Assembly (NCBI GenBank): GCA_026387335.1
Contig: JAPLLX010000007.1
Location: 243-64,242 of the forward strand
Length of the DNA: 64,000 nucleotides
DNA from: Candidatus Omnitrophota bacterium
GTDB lineage: Bacteria; Omnitrophota; Gorgyraeia; Gygaellales; Profunditerraquicolaceae
Direction of reading: 5' to 3'
Both the position numbers and the translations under genes were made by a program. Shown piece after piece: positions 55,305-61,571 of the stretch. The notes below the pieces were generated by a model. The model searched no databases. It was given only the letters and a program-made list of their open reading frames with translations, and was not told the origin of the DNA. Position 1 is the stretch's first letter. Each line of letters opens with the position of its first letter.

Positions 55305-55379
55305 GGTGGCTATAGCTCAATTGGTTAGAGCGTTAGACTGTGGCTCTAAAGGTTGCGGGTTCGATCCCCGTTAGCCACC
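55305..55379 (+). tRNA. tRNA-His (anticodon GTG) with encoded G-1
   Basis: G-GTGGCTA / GCTC-AATTGGTTA-GAGC / TTAGA-CTGTGGC-TCTAA / GCGGG-TTCGATC-CCCGT / TAGCCAC-C. Confidence 0.95.
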
Positions 55380-55434
55380 CATAACTTATTGTGCCACAAC
55401 GATTTACAACATTATTTGAAAATTATAAGAATCC

Positions 55435-55467
55435 AGAGCGTTAGACTGTGGCTCTAAAGGTTGCGGG
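55435..55467 (+). pseudogene. Partial duplicate of tRNA-His (D-stem 3' strand through T-stem 5' strand), non-functional
   Basis: 33 nt, AGAGCGTTAGACTGTGGCTCTAAAGGTTGCGGG, identical to 55327-55359 at an offset of 108 nt. The flanks diverge: no acceptor stem and a degenerate T-arm. Confidence 0.8.
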
Positions 55468-55496
55468 ATCGTTCTCCTCGCATAACGGGATAGTTT

Positions 55497-55533
55497 AAGG
55501 CCTATGGTCTGAATTTAGATCATAGGCCTTTTT
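55497..55533 (+). terminator. Intrinsic terminator after the tRNA-His locus
   Basis: 14-bp stem AAGGCCTATGGTCT/AGATCATAGGCCTT with one G-U pair, followed by TTTTT. Confidence 0.8.
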
Positions 55534-55550: not shown

Positions 55551-57362
55551 ATGCTTAGATTGGGAAAACAGGTAGACCTCAAGATAATCATTACAATTGC
55601 CTCCATTTTAATTATAACTTTCTTTTCTTTTTATCCCTGCCTTAAAAATAATTTTACGAACTGGGACGACAATTCATATGTAACAAACAATACAAGCGTG
55701 CGTAATTTATCAACAGGCAATATAAGACGTATTTTTTCCTCTTTTTCTGTGGGCAATTATCAGCCCGCGGTTATCTTGTCCTATTTATTTGAATACCGCT
55801 TCTTTAAGTTGAAACCATTCGGGTATCATTTAACTAACCTTATACTGCACTTACTTAATTGTCTATTTGTGTTTTGGCTGTTTTATCTGCTTACCCGCAA
55901 GATCTCGGTTTCTTGGCTAACAGCCGTCCTCTTTGGCCTACACCCTTTACATGTGGAATCAGTCGCCTGGATCAGTGAGAGAAAAGACGTGCTTTACGCG
56001 TGTTTCTTCTTAGCTGCGCTTATTTGCTATTGTTATTACCTGCGGAAGGAAAAAATAGGAAAATATTATTATTCTTCTTTAATTTTATTTATTTTCTCTC
56101 TTCTATCAAAAGCAATGGCCATCACTTTGCCCGCCGTGCTGTTGCTTATAGATTATTTTTTGCATAGAAAGCGCAGTAAAACCGCGCTCCTGGATAAAAT
56201 TCCCTTCTTTATTCTCTCTTTTATATTCGGGATAATCGCTGCTATCGGCCAATACTCAAGCGGAGCCGTAAGGCAAGAGAGTTTACTTAATTTTGTGAAT
56301 AAAATCGCGGTTTCTAGCTACGGCATAATTTTTTATCTTAATAAAATATTAGTCCCGATCAAGCTTTCTTGTTTTTATCCTTATGCGGGAACAAAAGAAA
56401 TTTCCTTATTTCCCTATACTTTTATCACAGTTGTTATCCTGTTGGCCGCTGTAATTATTTCAAGTAAGCGCACAAGGAAAATTATTTTTGGCAGTTTTTT
56501 ATTTTTAATTACTATTTTACCCGTTTTACAATTTATACCAATAGGCAATATCATCGTTGCCGATCGTTATATTTATATCTCATCGTTAGGAATATTTTAT
56601 CTTATTTCCGAGGGGTTTATCTGGTTATGCGCTTTGAAAACAAAACACCTTTATTTTTTACAAAGTTTGATGATGTTGATAATTTTAACCGGCGCGCTAG
56701 GCATTTTGGCCACATTAACCTGGAAAAGATGCCAGGTCTGGAATAATAGTATAGTTTTGTGGAGTGATGTTTTGAAGAATTATCCTAATGAAGCGACTGC
56801 TTACAAAAACCGGGGAGTGGCCTACCGGGATCAAGGTAACTTTACGCAGGCCATCTCTGATTATAATCGGGCGATAGAACTTAATCCTAATGATGCCGAT
56901 CCTTACAACAACCGCGGAGTGGTCTACCGGGACCAGGGTAACTTTACGCAGGCAATCTCTGATTATAATAGGGCGATAGAACTTAAACCTAACTATGCCG
57001 ATGCTTACTACAACCGTGCCCTTGCTTATCAAGCCCAGGGTAGCCCCGCCCAGGCTATTTCTAATTTCAGTAAGGCCATTAAAATTGATTCCCATCTTGT
57101 TAAAGCTTACAACAACCGCGCGACAGCCTATGTTCAAGAAAAAAATTATGAACTGGCTTTATCCGATCTTAATAAGGCTATTGAAATTACCCCTAATGAT
57201 GGAGAGGTATTTTACAACCGGGCGGTAGTGCGTTTTTTAATGAAAGAATATGATAAGGCCTGGATGGATATTCATCGAGCAGAAGAATTGGGAGAAAAAG
57301 TAGACCCTAAGCTTATTGAATTGCTCCGGAAAGCCTCTAAAAACAAGGAATTGCCTCTCTAA
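55551..57362 (+). CDS. TMTC-like membrane protein: polytopic N-terminal domain (DUF1736-type motif) plus C-terminal TPR repeats
   Basis: ~11 TM helices with HPLHVESVAWISERKDVLY (DUF1736-like). The C-terminus has about six 34-aa TPR units (A..Y.NRG.AY...G....AI.DY..AIEL.P). Confidence 0.75.
   Translation: MLRLGKQVDLKIIITIASILIITFFSFYPCLKNNFTNWDDNSYVTNNTSVRNLSTGNIRRIFSSFSVGNYQPAVILSYLFEYRFFKLKPFGYHLTNLILHLLNCLFVFWLFYLLTRKISVSWLTAVLFGLHPLHVESVAWISERKDVLYACFFLAALICYCYYLRKEKIGKYYYSSLILFIFSLLSKAMAITLPAVLLLIDYFLHRKRSKTALLDKIPFFILSFIFGIIAAIGQYSSGAVRQESLLNFVNKIAVSSYGIIFYLNKILVPIKLSCFYPYAGTKEISLFPYTFITVVILLAAVIISSKRTRKIIFGSFLFLITILPVLQFIPIGNIIVADRYIYISSLGIFYLISEGFIWLCALKTKHLYFLQSLMMLIILTGALGILATLTWKRCQVWNNSIVLWSDVLKNYPNEATAYKNRGVAYRDQGNFTQAISDYNRAIELNPNDADPYNNRGVVYRDQGNFTQAISDYNRAIELKPNYADAYYNRALAYQAQGSPAQAISNFSKAIKIDSHLVKAYNNRATAYVQEKNYELALSDLNKAIEITPNDGEVFYNRAVVRFLMKEYDKAWMDIHRAEELGEKVDPKLIELLRKASKNKELPL
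56808..57011 (+). repeat. Two near-identical 102-bp tandem units encoding adjacent TPR repeats
   Basis: Units 56808-56909 and 56910-57011 align with roughly 90% identity by eye (NRGVAYRDQGNFTQAISDYNRAIELNPNDADPYN / NRGVVYRDQGNFTQAISDYNRAIELKPNYADAYY). Confidence 0.85.
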
Positions 57363-57443: not shown

Positions 57444-57689
57444 ATGCCTTGGTCACTTTACATAGTTAAATGCCAAGATACATCCCTTTACACCGGCATC
57501 ACAACCGATATCCCCCGTCGGCTCAAAGAGCATAATGCCAAGAAGGGCGCGTTTTATACCAAGAATAAGATTCCGGTTGAGCTTGTGTACCAAGAGCCAA
57601 TGCGGAATCGCTCCGAAGCCCTTAAACGCGAATCCGCCATTAAGAAGCTGACAAGGAAACAAAAGCTGCAATTGTTACCCACTAAATAA
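57444..57689 (+). CDS. Small stand-alone GIY-YIG nuclease-domain protein (UPF0213-like)
   Basis: SLYIVKC.D.SLYTGITTD..RRL.EHN motif (GIY-YIG) and a conserved downstream Glu (EALKRE). Confidence 0.85.
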   Translation: MPWSLYIVKCQDTSLYTGITTDIPRRLKEHNAKKGAFYTKNKIPVELVYQEPMRNRSEALKRESAIKKLTRKQKLQLLPTK

Positions 57690-57738: not shown

Positions 57739-58026
57739 ATGACTAATGCAATTTCGGTTGAAGTTATAGCTACAAAGATCTTAGAGATAAGAGGTAAAAA
57801 GGTTATGCTGGATAGCGATCTGGCTAAGCTTTATGGCGTAGAAACCAAAGTATTAATTCAGGCTGTAAGAAGAAATAAGGCGCGCTTCCCGCTCGACTTC
57901 ATGTATATACTCACAAGACAAGAGGTTATGAACTTGAGGTCACAAATTGTGACCTCAAGTTGGAGCGGGAGAAGAATTGAGTTATCTTCTTCGTTGTCAA
58001 GCCTACCCAAAAGTGCTATAATTTAA
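57739..58026 (+). pseudogene. ORF6N (KilA-N-related) domain gene, apparently truncated after the conserved LRSQ.VTSSW.GRR segment
   Basis: KVMLDSDLAKLYGVETKVLIQAVRRNKARFPLDFMY.LT..E..NLRSQIVTSSWSGRR matches the ORF6N pattern. The usual continuation (YLPYAFTE...) is absent in all frames. Confidence 0.6.
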
Positions 58027-58090
58027 CAACTTAGGAGAAAATATGTCTTTAGCTGAGTTTGCGATCACCTTATATTTATAACTATATTTA

Positions 58091-58117
58091 ACCCAGCCAC
58101 GTAGACTGGGTTTTTTT
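58091..58117 (+). terminator. Intrinsic terminator separating the ORF6N remnant from the MazG/DUF2075/HNH module
   Basis: Stem ACCCAG/CTGGGT (58091-58096 / 58106-58111) followed by a T7 tract. Confidence 0.7.
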
Positions 58118-58142: not shown

Positions 58143-58490
58143 ATGAACGAAATGAAAGAAATTACTGAAAAAATCAAGAAATTTAGAGATGAGCGTGACT
58201 GGATGCAATTTCATGATCCTAAGAATATGGCTGTTTCAATAATACTCGAAGCTTCTGAGCTGCTTGAGCATTTTCAATGGAAAACTACCGAAGAAGTAGA
58301 AAGATATTCAAGGAAAAATCTCGCTGAGATTAAGGATGAAATTGCAGACATAGCCTTATATCTTTTTGAATTAGCCGATAATCTCGGTATCAATTTAATT
58401 GATGCGATGGATCAAAAACTTAAAAAAAATGAAATGAAATATCCGGTGGAAAAAGCTAAAGGAAAGCATACAAAATACAATAAGCTATGA
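58143..58490 (+). CDS. MazG-like all-alpha nucleoside-triphosphate pyrophosphohydrolase (DCTPP1/YpjD-like)
   Basis: F...RDW.QFH.PKN....I..EA.EL.E.FQW......E...EIADI..YL..LA pattern with EExxE/D metal motifs. AAGGAG RBS before ATG 58143. Its stop overlaps the next start (ATGA at 58487-58490). Confidence 0.8.
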   Translation: MNEMKEITEKIKKFRDERDWMQFHDPKNMAVSIILEASELLEHFQWKTTEEVERYSRKNLAEIKDEIADIALYLFELADNLGINLIDAMDQKLKKNEMKYPVEKAKGKHTKYNKL

Positions 58491-60865
58491 GACTCTATGA
58501 GGGGTCAATCAAGGAATTTTCGGAAGACGTAATACATAATCGTATCGCAGATATATTAAAAGATAACTTTCTCGCCTACTATAGAAGACCACCCTCAGAA
58601 CCAGAATATCGTTCCTGGCAGCAGTCACTAAATTTCCTAAATAACGCATTCACGTATTCAGATTTATTGAATAATAAAATAATAGTGGAGTATGAATTAC
58701 CATATTCAACTCGGCGCATCGATGTGTTGGTGTTTGGGAAGAATAATTCAAATAAGGATAGTGTTGTTTTAATGGAGTTAAAGCAATGGTCTAATGAACA
58801 TGTCTATGATTGTGAAAATGAAGGTAATGTAATAATAGATTTTCTTGGTAAGAGAGAGGTAGCTCATCCTTGTTTACAAGTTGAAGGATATCATTTTGAT
58901 TTATTAGATTTTCTGTTGATTTTTAATAGTGATGACGCAGTGCAGCTAAATTCTTGCACATATTGTCACAATTATACTAAGCAAAAAGAAAACATACTCT
59001 CGCTCCCCAAATTCCATAAATTCACCAAGGCTTTTCCTCTGTTTCTCAAAGAAGATGTCAGAGAATTGGGCCTTTATTTGCAGGAGAGATTAAAGAATAG
59101 TGACGGGCTAGAAGTCTTTAGTCGTTTTTTAAATAGCCCTGTTCGACCTTCGAAAAGATTACTAGATCACACTGGCGATATGATTCATAAGCAGCAAATA
59201 TTTACGCTTATTGATGATCAAATCGCTGCTTATAATGCGATTATTAGCAAAGCTAAGCAGTTAACTAAGACAAGTACAAAGTCTATTATTGTTGTAAAGG
59301 GTGGTCCTGGAACAGGCAAGTCAGTAATTGCATTAGAAGTTATGGGCGAGCTGATGCGTCAGGGTAAGGTTGTATATCATGCTACCGGTTCATCCGCATT
59401 TACAAATACATTGAGAAAAATTGTTGGACGTAGAGCATCAAATCTCTTCAAATTCTTTTTTAACTTTACGCAGCACAAGGAGAACGAAATCGATGTTCTG
59501 ATATGCGATGAGGCCCATAGGATTAGGTCGGATAGCAATGATTATGGGGTGCCTTCTAAATTTAAATCAAAAAACCCTCAAATAGATGATCTTATAAGGC
59601 CCGCAAAGTTATCGATATTTTTTATAGATGAATTCCAGATTGTCCGTCCAAAGGAGATTGGTAGTGCTGAATTAATAAAAAGTTCAGCCGCTAAATTTGG
59701 CGTAAATGATAAAGACATTGTAGAATTCGAACTTAGGACGCAGTTCCGTTGTTCCGGGTCAGATGCATATTTACAGTGGTTAGACAAGCTACTGGAGATT
59801 AGAGAGTCTGATATAGATATTTTTGATGCAAAAATGGAGTTTAGAATTTTTGAAACTCCAGTAGATTTAAAAAGAGCAATTGATGAGAAAAATAGACACA
59901 AGGAGAATTTAGCTAGAATTGTTGCTGGTTTCTGTTGGAAATGGAGTGAACCGAATCCAGACGGTTCATTAGTAAAAGATGTTCAAATAGGTGACTTTCA
60001 AATGCCCTGGGAGAAGAAGGATGAATTTTGGAAGTGGGCTACTGATAAGAGTGGTATGGAGCAGGTTGGGACAGTCTATACAGCTCAAGGTTTTGAATTT
60101 GACTATATAGGTGTAATCTTTGGAGACGACCTCGTTTGGCGCAAAGATAAAGGTTGGATTAGTATTCCTGAGAATTCTTTTGATAAACAGGTTTTAAGAG
60201 GGAATCAAAAGCTAACTGATCATCTTAAACATGTTTATAGAGTGTTGATGTCGCGCGCTCATAAGGGAGTTTATTTGTATTTCATGGACAAAGAAACAGA
60301 AATGTTTTTTAGGACTAAGATTGAAAGCAGGGATGGCGCTTTGATGTTTTCTGATATTGTTAAAGAGGATGAAAAGCAGTCTAAAGAGCCAGTGCCGACG
60401 ATCCCGGAAAATCTGCAGTTTAGAGATTATCTCCCTATTTTATCACTTGAAGCGGTTGCAACGTCATTCGGTAAAGAAACACAGGTTGAACAAGAACCGA
60501 TTGGTTGGATCAAGGCCGATATCCCTAGAACTTTGAATAAAGACATGTTTGTTGCGAAAGTGGTAGGTAAGTCAATGGAACCGACTATTCCTGATGGAAG
60601 CTATTGCGTATTTCGCTTTGACAAAGGAGGGACCAGGAATGGATTAGCTGTCCTTGTGGAGTGTCATTTAATTTCTGACCCTGAAACGACGAGGCAGTTT
60701 ACAATAAAGCGGTATAAAAGCGAGAAAGAATATTTTGACGATGGGACATGGAGACATAAGAAAATAATTCTTTCTCCTGATAATAATGATTTTAAAGATA
60801 TCGTTTTGGAAGATGTGCCCGCTATCGAATTTCGAGTTGTAGCGGAGTTTATGTGTGTTTTATAA
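58487..60865 (+). CDS. DUF2075-type protein (N-terminal PD-(D/E)xK-like nuclease plus P-loop SF1-like helicase/ATPase) with C-terminal S24 LexA/UmuD-type peptidase domain
   Basis: N-terminus has SE.E.RSWQQSL and RRIDVLVFG...VLMELKQW (D...ELK). Walker A GGPGTGKS (aa 272-279), Walker B/DEAH ICDEAHR, helicase C-terminal motif TVYTAQGFEFDY. C-terminal aa ~645-792 have VVGKSMEPTIPDGSY (Ser codon 60572-60574) and FTIKRY (general-base Lys). Confidence 0.8.
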   Translation: MRLYEGSIKEFSEDVIHNRIADILKDNFLAYYRRPPSEPEYRSWQQSLNFLNNAFTYSDLLNNKIIVEYELPYSTRRIDVLVFGKNNSNKDSVVLMELKQWSNEHVYDCENEGNVIIDFLGKREVAHPCLQVEGYHFDLLDFLLIFNSDDAVQLNSCTYCHNYTKQKENILSLPKFHKFTKAFPLFLKEDVRELGLYLQERLKNSDGLEVFSRFLNSPVRPSKRLLDHTGDMIHKQQIFTLIDDQIAAYNAIISKAKQLTKTSTKSIIVVKGGPGTGKSVIALEVMGELMRQGKVVYHATGSSAFTNTLRKIVGRRASNLFKFFFNFTQHKENEIDVLICDEAHRIRSDSNDYGVPSKFKSKNPQIDDLIRPAKLSIFFIDEFQIVRPKEIGSAELIKSSAAKFGVNDKDIVEFELRTQFRCSGSDAYLQWLDKLLEIRESDIDIFDAKMEFRIFETPVDLKRAIDEKNRHKENLARIVAGFCWKWSEPNPDGSLVKDVQIGDFQMPWEKKDEFWKWATDKSGMEQVGTVYTAQGFEFDYIGVIFGDDLVWRKDKGWISIPENSFDKQVLRGNQKLTDHLKHVYRVLMSRAHKGVYLYFMDKETEMFFRTKIESRDGALMFSDIVKEDEKQSKEPVPTIPENLQFRDYLPILSLEAVATSFGKETQVEQEPIGWIKADIPRTLNKDMFVAKVVGKSMEPTIPDGSYCVFRFDKGGTRNGLAVLVECHLISDPETTRQFTIKRYKSEKEYFDDGTWRHKKIILSPDNNDFKDIVLEDVPAIEFRVVAEFMCVL

Positions 60866-60875
60866 TTTCTAAATA

Positions 60876-61571
60876 ATGTTTAAAGCCGGTGATGTAATTT
60901 CATACATTGAAATGTGCCAAGAAGAAGGTATAAGTCTTCAAAGAGGAATGAACTTTCGACTTAAAGGAAGACACAGTGTAATATTGATGAGTCTCAGACG
61001 CAATGCTCCATATGCTGATAAGGTTGAAGATAATGGCAAGACATTAATATACGAAGGTCATGATATCCCTCGGTTTAATAGAGCTCAAGATTCAAAGCTG
61101 GTTTCTCAACAAATGCAGAATCCCGGAGGTAGTTTAACTCAGAATGGGTTTTTTTATAAAGCAGCGCATGATTACAAAAATAAGAAGTCTGATGCAGAGC
61201 TAGTCAAGGTATATGAAAAAATTCATTCAGGAATATGGGCTTATAACGGTTTATTTAAACTAGTTGATTCGTGGCAAGAAGAATCGAATAAAAGAAAAGT
61301 ATTTAAATTCAGACTTGAAATAGATAAAATAAATTCTAAGGGCAAACAGCCAGAAAATTTTGATTTGGATCGTAACAGATTAATACCTGCATCTGTAAAG
61401 CTAGCGGTTTGGAAGAGGGATAAGGGGAAGTGTACTAAATGCGGCAGCCCTGATAATTTACATTTCGACCACATAATTCCTTATTCAAAAGGCGGGTCTT
61501 CTTTAGTTGCAGAAAACATTCAGTTGTTATGCGCAAGACATAATATTGAAAAGCGAGATAGGATTGAATAA
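60876..61571 (+). CDS. SRA (YDG)-like domain fused to HNH nuclease: type IV (modification-dependent) restriction endonuclease candidate
   Basis: N-terminus GMNFRLKGRHSVILMSLRRNAPYADKVEDNGKTLIYEGHD and VKVYEKI..GIWAYNGLFKLVDSWQEE..KRKVFKFRLE parallel the SRA blocks (GIHG..GAYSLVL.GGY.DD.D.G....YTGSGG; VRV.R.....YDGIYKVV.YW.E.G..G..V.RY.L.R). C-terminus CTKCG..DNLHFDHIIPYSKGG......NIQLLCARHN is an HNH motif. Confidence 0.75.
   Translation: MFKAGDVISYIEMCQEEGISLQRGMNFRLKGRHSVILMSLRRNAPYADKVEDNGKTLIYEGHDIPRFNRAQDSKLVSQQMQNPGGSLTQNGFFYKAAHDYKNKKSDAELVKVYEKIHSGIWAYNGLFKLVDSWQEESNKRKVFKFRLEIDKINSKGKQPENFDLDRNRLIPASVKLAVWKRDKGKCTKCGSPDNLHFDHIIPYSKGGSSLVAENIQLLCARHNIEKRDRIE

Follow-up and report, generated by a model that had tools for sequence, protein, structure and literature searches.

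The 64,000-nt stretch of Candidatus Omnitrophota contig JAPLLX010000007.1 that was analyzed here (the window) carries, at positions 58143-61571 of the + strand, a compact operon of three open reading frames (ORFs). The first, g1 (58143-58490), is preceded by a GGAG ribosome-binding site (RBS) and encodes, from the ATG behind that site, a 115-aa all-alpha nucleoside triphosphate pyrophosphatase of the MazG-like, DCTPP1-like type. The second, g2 (58487-60865), encodes a 792-aa protein in which a nuclease-helicase is fused to an S24 peptidase domain, and the third, g3 (60876-61571), encodes a 231-aa SRA-HNH endonuclease. The g1 stop and g2 start codons share the sequence ATGA at 58487-58490, and a spacing of 10 nt separates g2 from g3. 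A preliminary description of the locus had recognized this tight, co-directional unit. It had also assigned a MazG-like domain to g1, a DUF2075 helicase (with Walker A residue K278) and an S24 peptidase (with Ser696) to g2, and SRA and HNH domains to g3; the layout and all of these assignments hold in the searches described below. The comparison with relatives leads, with moderate confidence, to the reading that the three genes form a mobile defence operon with two separable parts, namely a conserved g1-g2 cassette, present here in its S24 variant, and a recruited SRA-HNH gene.

The conserved unit was delimited in a neighborhood survey of 80 genomic loci encoding g2 relatives, of which 75 have enough upstream sequence to be informative. 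A MazG-like gene lies directly upstream of the g2 relative in 60 of the 75 and within 3 kb in 6 more. With this partner present in 66 of 75 loci (88%), the unit proper is a cassette of two genes, MazG-like + DUF2075. The gap between the two genes is mostly -4 to +7 nt, and in five of the six non-adjacent loci a RadC gene is inserted between them. The pairing is found in Omnitrophota, Nitrospirota, Syntrophaceae, Proteobacteria, bacteria of the candidate phyla radiation (CPR) and DPANN archaea, and it is still seen where identity has fallen to 32-41%, namely in Halomonas, a Microcystis phage record and two IMG/VR contigs. About 12 of the 80 loci (~15%) have an SRA-HNH gene next to the cassette, mostly directly downstream with a spacing of -14 to +15 nt, and upstream instead in loci L001 and L052. 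Of the two linkages that the preliminary description proposed to look for around the 792-aa protein, the one to MazG-like genes is borne out, and the one to SRA-HNH genes is seen in this minority of loci.

The g1 product matches the Pfam MazG-like family PF12643 (E = 4e-20). Its closest solved relatives are 4qgp, a 118-aa chain deposited as 'pyrophosphatase' (5e-25), and mammalian DCTPP1 (1e-18), and an alignment shows the motifs RDWxQFHxPxN...FQW to be common to g1 and DCTPP1. The metal-binding residues E36, E39, E66 and D69 (ExxE...ExxD) are kept in at least 95% of 67 MazG partners from cassettes, and g1 has no PADLOC match. DCTPP1 prefers dCTP and 5-modified dCTP (PMC7162842), and the base-pocket motifs of g1, which are those of dCTP pyrophosphatases, suggest deoxynucleoside triphosphates (dNTPs) rather than signalling nucleotides as the predicted substrates. 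These motifs bear on a toxin-antidote or abortive-infection scheme, in which a toxic nuclease-helicase would be restrained by the co-translated pyrophosphatase, for example through removal of an activating nucleotide, until infection. In its favor, the two genes are translationally coupled and strictly paired, AbiO is an abortive-infection gene, and a phage MazG-like enzyme removes the signal (p)ppGpp and so blocks a death pathway. The pocket motifs nevertheless point to dNTPs, toxicity of g2 is purely hypothetical, and the scheme is considered highly improbable.

In g2, a putative NERD-like PD-(D/E)xK nuclease core is placed at aa 51-147 (58637-58927, + strand, as for all features given here). 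NERD profiles match three of three family members below threshold (E = 0.0014-0.017, 16-19.6 bits against a cut-off of 22.1), and D79 and E97-x-K99 are invariant in the family alignment. A DUF2075 / Schlafen group-3 helicase of superfamily 1B (SF1B) follows at aa 265-601 (59279-60289), identified by Pfam with E = 1e-83 and by Foldseek; its Walker A sequence GGPGTGKS (272-279) and its DEAH box (341-344) are invariant. An AlphaFold2 (AF2) model of g2 (predicted local distance difference test, pLDDT, 75) matches Dda, RecD2, SLFN11, Dna2 and Upf1 in Foldseek; a direct sequence search of solved structures with g2 or its S24 tail returns no match. PADLOC gives partial matches to single-gene models only: PDC-S41 (3e-17), AbiO (2e-13) and Nhi (1e-12).

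The S24 peptidase domain covers aa 679-783 of g2 (60521-60835) and scores 28.5 bits in Pfam against a cut-off of 23.3. Searched against the PDB, the domain profile places LexA and UmuD on top, weakly (E ~0.01); a match to the phrog_4 repressor has 1e-7. The Ser-Lys dyad is present in the window protein as GKS696MEP and TIK741RY; among 115 long g2 homologues, the serine motif GxSMxP occurs in 109 and the lysine motif T[VI]K[RK]Y in 111. Ahead of the domain, the alignment places a LexA-like cleavage-site strand, 'LPILSLEAVATSFG', at aa 648-661 (60428-60469), with Ala658-Thr659 at the scissile position. There, the window clade reads A-V-A658-T659-S, and most other clades of the family show the pattern of LexA and UmuD, either AAA-G or AAC-G. 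The S24 fusion occurs in 22 of the 80 loci and is limited to some bacterial clades; it is absent from the other 58, and the form without it has ~615 aa. On a neighbor-joining (NJ) tree, the S24 loci form two main groups and a divergent pair (L071/L074), and the fusion appears to be old because it is seen down to ~33% identity.

Where S24 is missing, a RadC-like JAB gene is often found. It adjoins the cassette in 25 of the 58 S24-less loci and in 0 of the 22 S24 loci (L020-L070 versus L001-L019), and it lies upstream, between the MazG-like and DUF2075 genes, or convergent with an 18-nt overlap. The exclusivity of S24 and RadC gives a Fisher p of 7e-5; the NJ tree shows clade structure, with about two to three clades of each kind. 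As an independent statistical signal the exclusivity was rejected, since it follows clades and not independent events. Cas4-like PDDEXK_1 genes are also frequent beside the cassette, and the adjacent slot elsewhere holds Mrr_cat (one locus), DpnI (one) or HNH_2 proteins of unknown specificity (up to four). The connection to modified DNA that the preliminary description had drawn is in this respect real, with SRA-HNH in about 12 of 80 loci and Mrr_cat and DpnI in one each.

Several variants of the cassette were noted in the survey. In L004, L005, L006, L008, L017 and L173, and also in L167 on a Hymenobacter plasmid, the S24 form is immediately followed by a second DUF2075 paralogue of 658-664 aa that has no S24 domain. 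These loci look like a tandem-helicase variant, and in L173 a Macro-domain gene follows the second helicase. L012 and L013 (CAVYLG010000005.1) are two S24-type genes 17.7 kb apart in one Omnitrophota genome, one with SRA-HNH and the other with MazG and a fragmented second DUF2075 gene. L107 is a mosaic relative to the window, with a MazG-like protein 84%, a DUF2075::S24 protein only 43% and an SRA-HNH protein 65% identical. In the P0123 context, the DUF2075::S24 gene is broken up into ORFs of 396 and 392 aa, with SIR2 upstream and SRA-HNH and a Cas4-like gene downstream; genes for LexA and a Y-family polymerase follow after another 3-4 kb. The helicase of an Acidobacteriota subclade (L023, L029, L050 and L055) has no MazG partner. 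Its gene is accompanied by those for a protein of ~1000 aa, for a ParB-like protein and for a further conserved protein, and the combination may represent a separate system that employs the same helicase.

The third gene encodes an SRA domain at about aa 1-150 and an HNH domain at about aa 163-231. The HNH domain is found by Pfam with E = 4.6e-9. The SAD_SRA score, 29.6 bits, is slightly below the cut-off of 30.7, and the SRA assignment comes from Foldseek, where the top matches of the AF2 model are the SUVH5 SRA domain (E = 1e-6, template modelling score 0.62-0.67), TagI (6ghs) and UHRF1. A CCCH zinc site (C186/C189/C219/H222) is invariant among 20 homologues, as are D198-H199 and N214, and PADLOC gives weak REase_II/PDC matches only. 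In the 64-kb window, which covers only part of the genome, a crude scan for C5 and N6 methyltransferase motifs gave no match.

The association of g3 with the cassette was also viewed from the other side, in 80 metagenomic loci centred on SRA-HNH relatives, about 33 of which had enough flank. The cassette is present in 2 of these ~33 informative loci, and ~31 of 33 SRA-HNH genes (~94%) stand alone, with no dominant neighbor gene at the free-standing loci. In a tree of SRA-HNH proteins, cassette-linked copies fall in at least five separate places, and the window copy lies among free-standing relatives. At L001, where g2 is 90% identical to that of the window, a different SRA-HNH protein, 48% identical, is encoded upstream. 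Since ~94% of its relatives are solitary, the SRA-HNH protein is best taken as a predicted autonomous type IV enzyme that appears to have been recruited to the cassette repeatedly, and this pattern is explained neither by chance co-location nor by an obligate three-part machine. As a separate observation, a small XRE-type helix-turn-helix (HTH) gene precedes free-standing SRA-HNH genes in L087 and five other loci and is reminiscent of the controller proteins of restriction systems.

Two rival readings turn on these surveys. Under the first, the locus is a mini defence islet of independent genes that share a hot spot and a promoter; the SRA-HNH enzyme would act alone, the nuclease-helicase would act alone like Nhi, and the pyrophosphatase would be dispensable. 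This agrees with the solitary SRA-HNH relatives (~31/33 informative loci), with the single-gene nature of Nhi, AbiO and Nhi-like systems, and with a third position that varies even among g2 orthologues at least 83% identical. However, the 88% pairing of MazG-like and DUF2075 genes, with overlapping stop and start codons and across very large distances, is a strong argument for coupling of those two, and SRA-HNH adjacency (~15%, independent captures, often with a spacing of -4 to +15 nt) is far above chance, so that the islet is regarded as unlikely. The second rival is the model of the preliminary description, an obligate three-layer machine of nucleotide degradation, S24-gated nuclease-helicase and SRA-HNH enzyme, triggered by RecA bound to single-stranded DNA (ssDNA). 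The operon packing in the window would be expected of such a machine, and the window-type triad does recur, in L174, L012, L107, L130 and the P0123 context (several Omnitrophota and other contigs). It is nevertheless found in a minority, with S24 absent from 58 and SRA-HNH from ~68 of the 80 loci; SRA-HNH genes are mostly free-standing; and the Ala-Gly cleavage site is lost in the window clade. Only the MazG-like/DUF2075 pair proves to be conserved, and the obligate three-layer system triggered by RecA-ssDNA is very unlikely as proposed.

The two-unit reading further holds that the operon is mobile, and its base composition is consistent with this. At 36.3% GC, the module lies below the window as a whole (42.5%; standard deviation of same-length windows 2.2%), and it is among the 3 lowest of 606 such windows. 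At third codon positions (GC3), g2 and g3 reach 0.333 and 0.281 against 0.464 +/- 0.053 for 55 long ORFs. The low GC content that the preliminary description had estimated from spot counts is therefore upheld by a full computation. Module and flank differ in the same direction in three other genomes (39 versus 50%, 37 versus 56% and 36 versus 46% GC); together with the window, the module is AT-rich relative to its flanks in four hosts. The g2 family is rare and patchy, with 481 matches in 185,579 species genomes, and bacterial and archaeal members share 55-67% identity. Judged by these features, the operon appears to have been acquired horizontally. A phage-borne gene was considered and rejected in view of the near-absence of the family from viral collections, with 2 relatives among the 2.9 M contigs of IMG/VR and 4 weak matches in INPHARED. 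The copy on the Hymenobacter plasmid adjoins a DNA methyltransferase gene, a DUF4747 gene and the second DUF2075 gene. In the window, the AT-rich stretch reaches beyond the module, from ~55.4 to 62.2 kb (37.5% GC).

The leader of the operon contains three candidate features. The best sigma70-like promoter upstream, TTGTCA-17-TATAAT with an extended TG, lies at 57994-58022 and is called from an 11/12 consensus match. It is followed by a 12-codon mini-ORF (MSLAEFAITLYL; 58043-58081), read from the sequence, which has an AGGAG RBS and shows no conservation in relatives. Next comes a hairpin at 58090-58117, 25 nt 5' of the g1 start, in which a 7-bp stem (AACCCAG-N9-CTGGGTT) precedes seven T residues and could serve as a terminator or attenuator. 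The preliminary description had placed an intrinsic terminator here; the hairpin and the T tract are present, but the terminator strength is modest (free energy -9.2 kcal/mol, z-score -1.9). A consensus terminator scan did not flag the hairpin because its loop measures 9 nt. The only strong promoter-like site lies 5' of the hairpin, and operon transcripts must therefore read through this 'terminator', which may be an attenuator or a means of low expression. A conserved regulatory leader or RNA upstream of g1 was rejected as a candidate, as Rfam gives tRNA only and no alignment is obtained among the upstream sequences of six relatives.

Further upstream, the tRNA-His gene with its duplicated fragment, the decayed ORF6N gene and the GIY-YIG gene named in the preliminary description are all present, the latter two by Pfam. 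The tRNA-His gene (55306-55380) is followed, 108 nt downstream, by a 43-nt partial copy of its positions 55327-55369 at 55435-55477 (93% identical) and by a terminator-like hairpin at 55497-55530. The partial copy is probably the scar of an old integration or excision. An island bracketed by tRNA-His repeats was rejected, as the fragment beside the tRNA gene, at a distance of 108 nt, is the sole copy and a distal repeat does not exist. Between the tRNA and the module lies a gene for a 603-aa membrane protein with C-terminal TPR repeats (55551-57362, 38% GC), in which three tandem 102-nt repeat units were noted at 56782-57087. The small GIY-YIG protein (57444-57689) is syntenic upstream in close relatives only (L002 and L003). 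The truncated ORF6N, an anti-repressor-like remnant identified by Pfam, PADLOC and phage-profile searches (57739-58026), contains a perfect 15-nt inverted repeat (AACTTGAGGTCACAA/TTGTGACCTCAAGTT) at 57931-57961.

Taken together, the module is probably an anti-virus module; its defence function, its substrates, the cooperation of its products and the role of S24 are predictions made from sequence. All predicted active sites appear intact, including the MazG ExxE...ExxD residues, the nuclease residues D79/E97/K99, the Walker A and B motifs, the S24 Ser/Lys dyad, and the HNH residues with their zinc ligands. Distant homology to validated defence proteins, with matches to Nhi, AbiO and PDC-S41, lends support to a defence role. 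In the proposed mechanism, the SRA-HNH enzyme would bind flipped-out 5-methylcytosine (5mC) or 5-hydroxymethylcytosine (5hmC) and nick or cut modified invading DNA. The nuclease-helicase would then load on ends, nicks or replication intermediates and degrade the DNA processively, as Nhi does. The pyrophosphatase would hydrolyze 5-modified or non-canonical pyrimidine dNTPs, so that either the phage would be starved of modified precursors, or modified nucleotides from salvage would be barred from the host DNA, where they would otherwise create a target. The S24 domain would serve as a regulatory or auto-inhibitory module that senses DNA damage or ssDNA, and its role may fall to a RadC-JAB protein encoded next to the cassette in the clades that have no S24.

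Several observations weigh against a defence operon of this kind. No multi-gene system of PADLOC-DB v2 is matched by the module. No PADLOC match spans the whole of g2; those to the Nhi and AbiO models cover residues 155-470 (~315) with E = 1e-12 to 1e-13, and on its sequence g2 appears to be a remote relative of these models rather than a member. The mean column identity of the g2 family, 67%, is unusually high for a defence gene. The immediate flanks are housekeeping genes, here and in the sampled relatives, with the cassette typically a small islet among them, and no classical defence island or known defence system was found in the annotated neighborhoods sampled. About 80% of cassettes have no modification-dependent nuclease nearby, and the modified-DNA reading may apply to a subset only. 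With Ala-Gly replaced by Ala-Thr, classical RecA-stimulated self-cleavage of S24 is doubtful in the window clade. Finally, g1, with 115 aa and no regulatory domain, could simply be a house-cleaning enzyme.

Some of these points are shared by an explanation through DNA repair and nucleotide-pool sanitation instead of immunity. Here g1 would remove damaged or non-canonical dNTPs, g2 would process forks and ends, S24 would tie the unit to the SOS response, RadC and Cas4-like proteins would be repair partners, and the SRA-HNH gene would be unrelated. MazG and DCTPP1 are classical house-cleaning enzymes, S24 domains belong to the SOS machinery, one relative has LexA and a Y-family polymerase at a distance of 3-4 kb, and RadC and Cas4-like PDDEXK_1 genes recur beside the cassette; the housekeeping flanks and the very high conservation of g2 would suit it as well. 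It is harder to reconcile with a rare, patchy distribution (481/185,579) that includes cross-domain transfer, with foreign GC content throughout, with repeated recruitment of different modification-dependent nucleases, with the restriction-modification-type neighbors on the Hymenobacter plasmid, and with the homology to Nhi and AbiO. A repair function is accordingly given little probability.

A wider proposal can be put forward only tentatively: MazG-like + DUF2075 may be a widespread, previously undescribed two-gene immune family of Bacteria and Archaea. It would have an exchangeable protease-type switch (S24 in cis or RadC-JAB in trans) and a slot for modification-dependent nucleases, and its DCTPP1-like enzyme would destroy phage modified dNTPs or shield the host, as a counter to phages with hypermodified DNA. 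In prokaryotes it would thereby bring together homologues of the human SLFN11-type helicase and DCTPP1. Should the cassette have an immune function, a conserved nucleotide-pool enzyme would be added to the Nhi/Schlafen-type nuclease-helicase defences, in a mechanism directed against phages whose DNA has modified bases in place of cytosine or thymine and which in this way escape most restriction systems. The alternation of S24 and RadC suggests a way in which DNA damage or ssDNA could gate the effector. With a length of 3.4 kb and clear catalytic residues, the system is compact, and it may illuminate how the helicase domain of human SLFN11-type restriction factors arose from prokaryotic ancestors and the reason why DCTPP1-like enzymes favor 5-modified dCTP.

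The pairing is strikingly conserved and is not reported in the searchable literature, which holds nothing relevant on DUF2075 or Schlafen with MazG, nor on S24 with a helicase and anti-phage activity. The statement in the preliminary description that no named system has this gene combination agrees with the PADLOC result. Closest in the literature are the 'Nhi-like' combination of an N-terminal nuclease and DUF2075 (Millman et al., 2022), the description of the Nhi mechanism (Bari et al.), and a report that noted modification-dependent nucleases next to DUF2075 NTPases and suggested that they be tested jointly (Lutz et al., 2019). In addition, for PUA-HAD systems, MazG-like domains have been proposed in a preprint of 2026 to be immune effectors directed at dNTPs (bioRxiv 10.64898/2026.01.15.699771).

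Each part of the operon can be set beside a known counterpart. Like DCTPP1 / RS21-C6 and 4QGP, the g1 protein belongs to PF12643, and it resembles them in catalytic-core size, in the ExxE...ExxD residues and in the RDWxQFHxPxN...FQW motifs, which align with DCTPP1. Unlike them, it is the obligate upstream partner of a nuclease-helicase, and its substrate preference is a prediction. The S24 domain of g2 resembles LexA, UmuD and phage CI in its Ser-Lys dyad (S696, K741), in an 'LPxNxxFxPI' strand and in a cleavage-site strand ~37 residues before the serine, but it is fused to an enzyme and not to a DNA-binding or polymerase-accessory domain. The AA[A/C]-G sequence of LexA and UmuD is exact in other g2 clades, whereas the window clade has Ala-Thr. 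Like the type IV SRA-HNH enzymes TagI and ScoA3IV/Sco5333, g3 combines an N-terminal SRA fold with a C-terminal HNH domain and zinc site. TagI is a structural match, but phmmer detects no similarity to it and g3 is the shorter protein (231 aa). Unlike these enzymes, g3 is predicted to be co-transcribed with a helicase cassette, and its dependence on 5mC/5hmC is likewise predicted.

At the level of whole systems, PUA-Calcineurin-CE/MazG-HAD systems also join a modified-base reader of the PUA superfamily to an enzyme targeting nucleotide triphosphates, and rare variants have a MazG-like effector. The present module differs in having no HAD or Calcineurin-CE component and in a PUA-type (SRA) domain that is fused to HNH and facultative. 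The nearest parallels to g2 are Nhi (S. epidermidis SERP2475), AbiO and the Nhi-like systems (Millman et al., 2022), in which one polypeptide likewise carries a DUF2075 SF1B helicase, preceded by an N-terminal PD-(D/E)xK-type nuclease of the kind predicted for g2. The similarity of g2 to the Nhi and AbiO models is significant and partial (~315 residues), and by analogy with Nhi it would likely act in the same mode, with phage DNA or replication intermediates being unwound and degraded. Whereas Nhi, AbiO and Nhi-like consist of one gene each, the g2 family is almost always accompanied by a dedicated MazG-like gene, and this near-obligate partner suggests that g2 would not be a single-gene system. 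The family further differs from them in carrying S24 in some clades and a RadC neighbor in others. The finding is best described as a probable Nhi-type nuclease-helicase defence with a previously undescribed MazG-like/DUF2075 cassette, to which a type IV SRA-HNH enzyme has been added.

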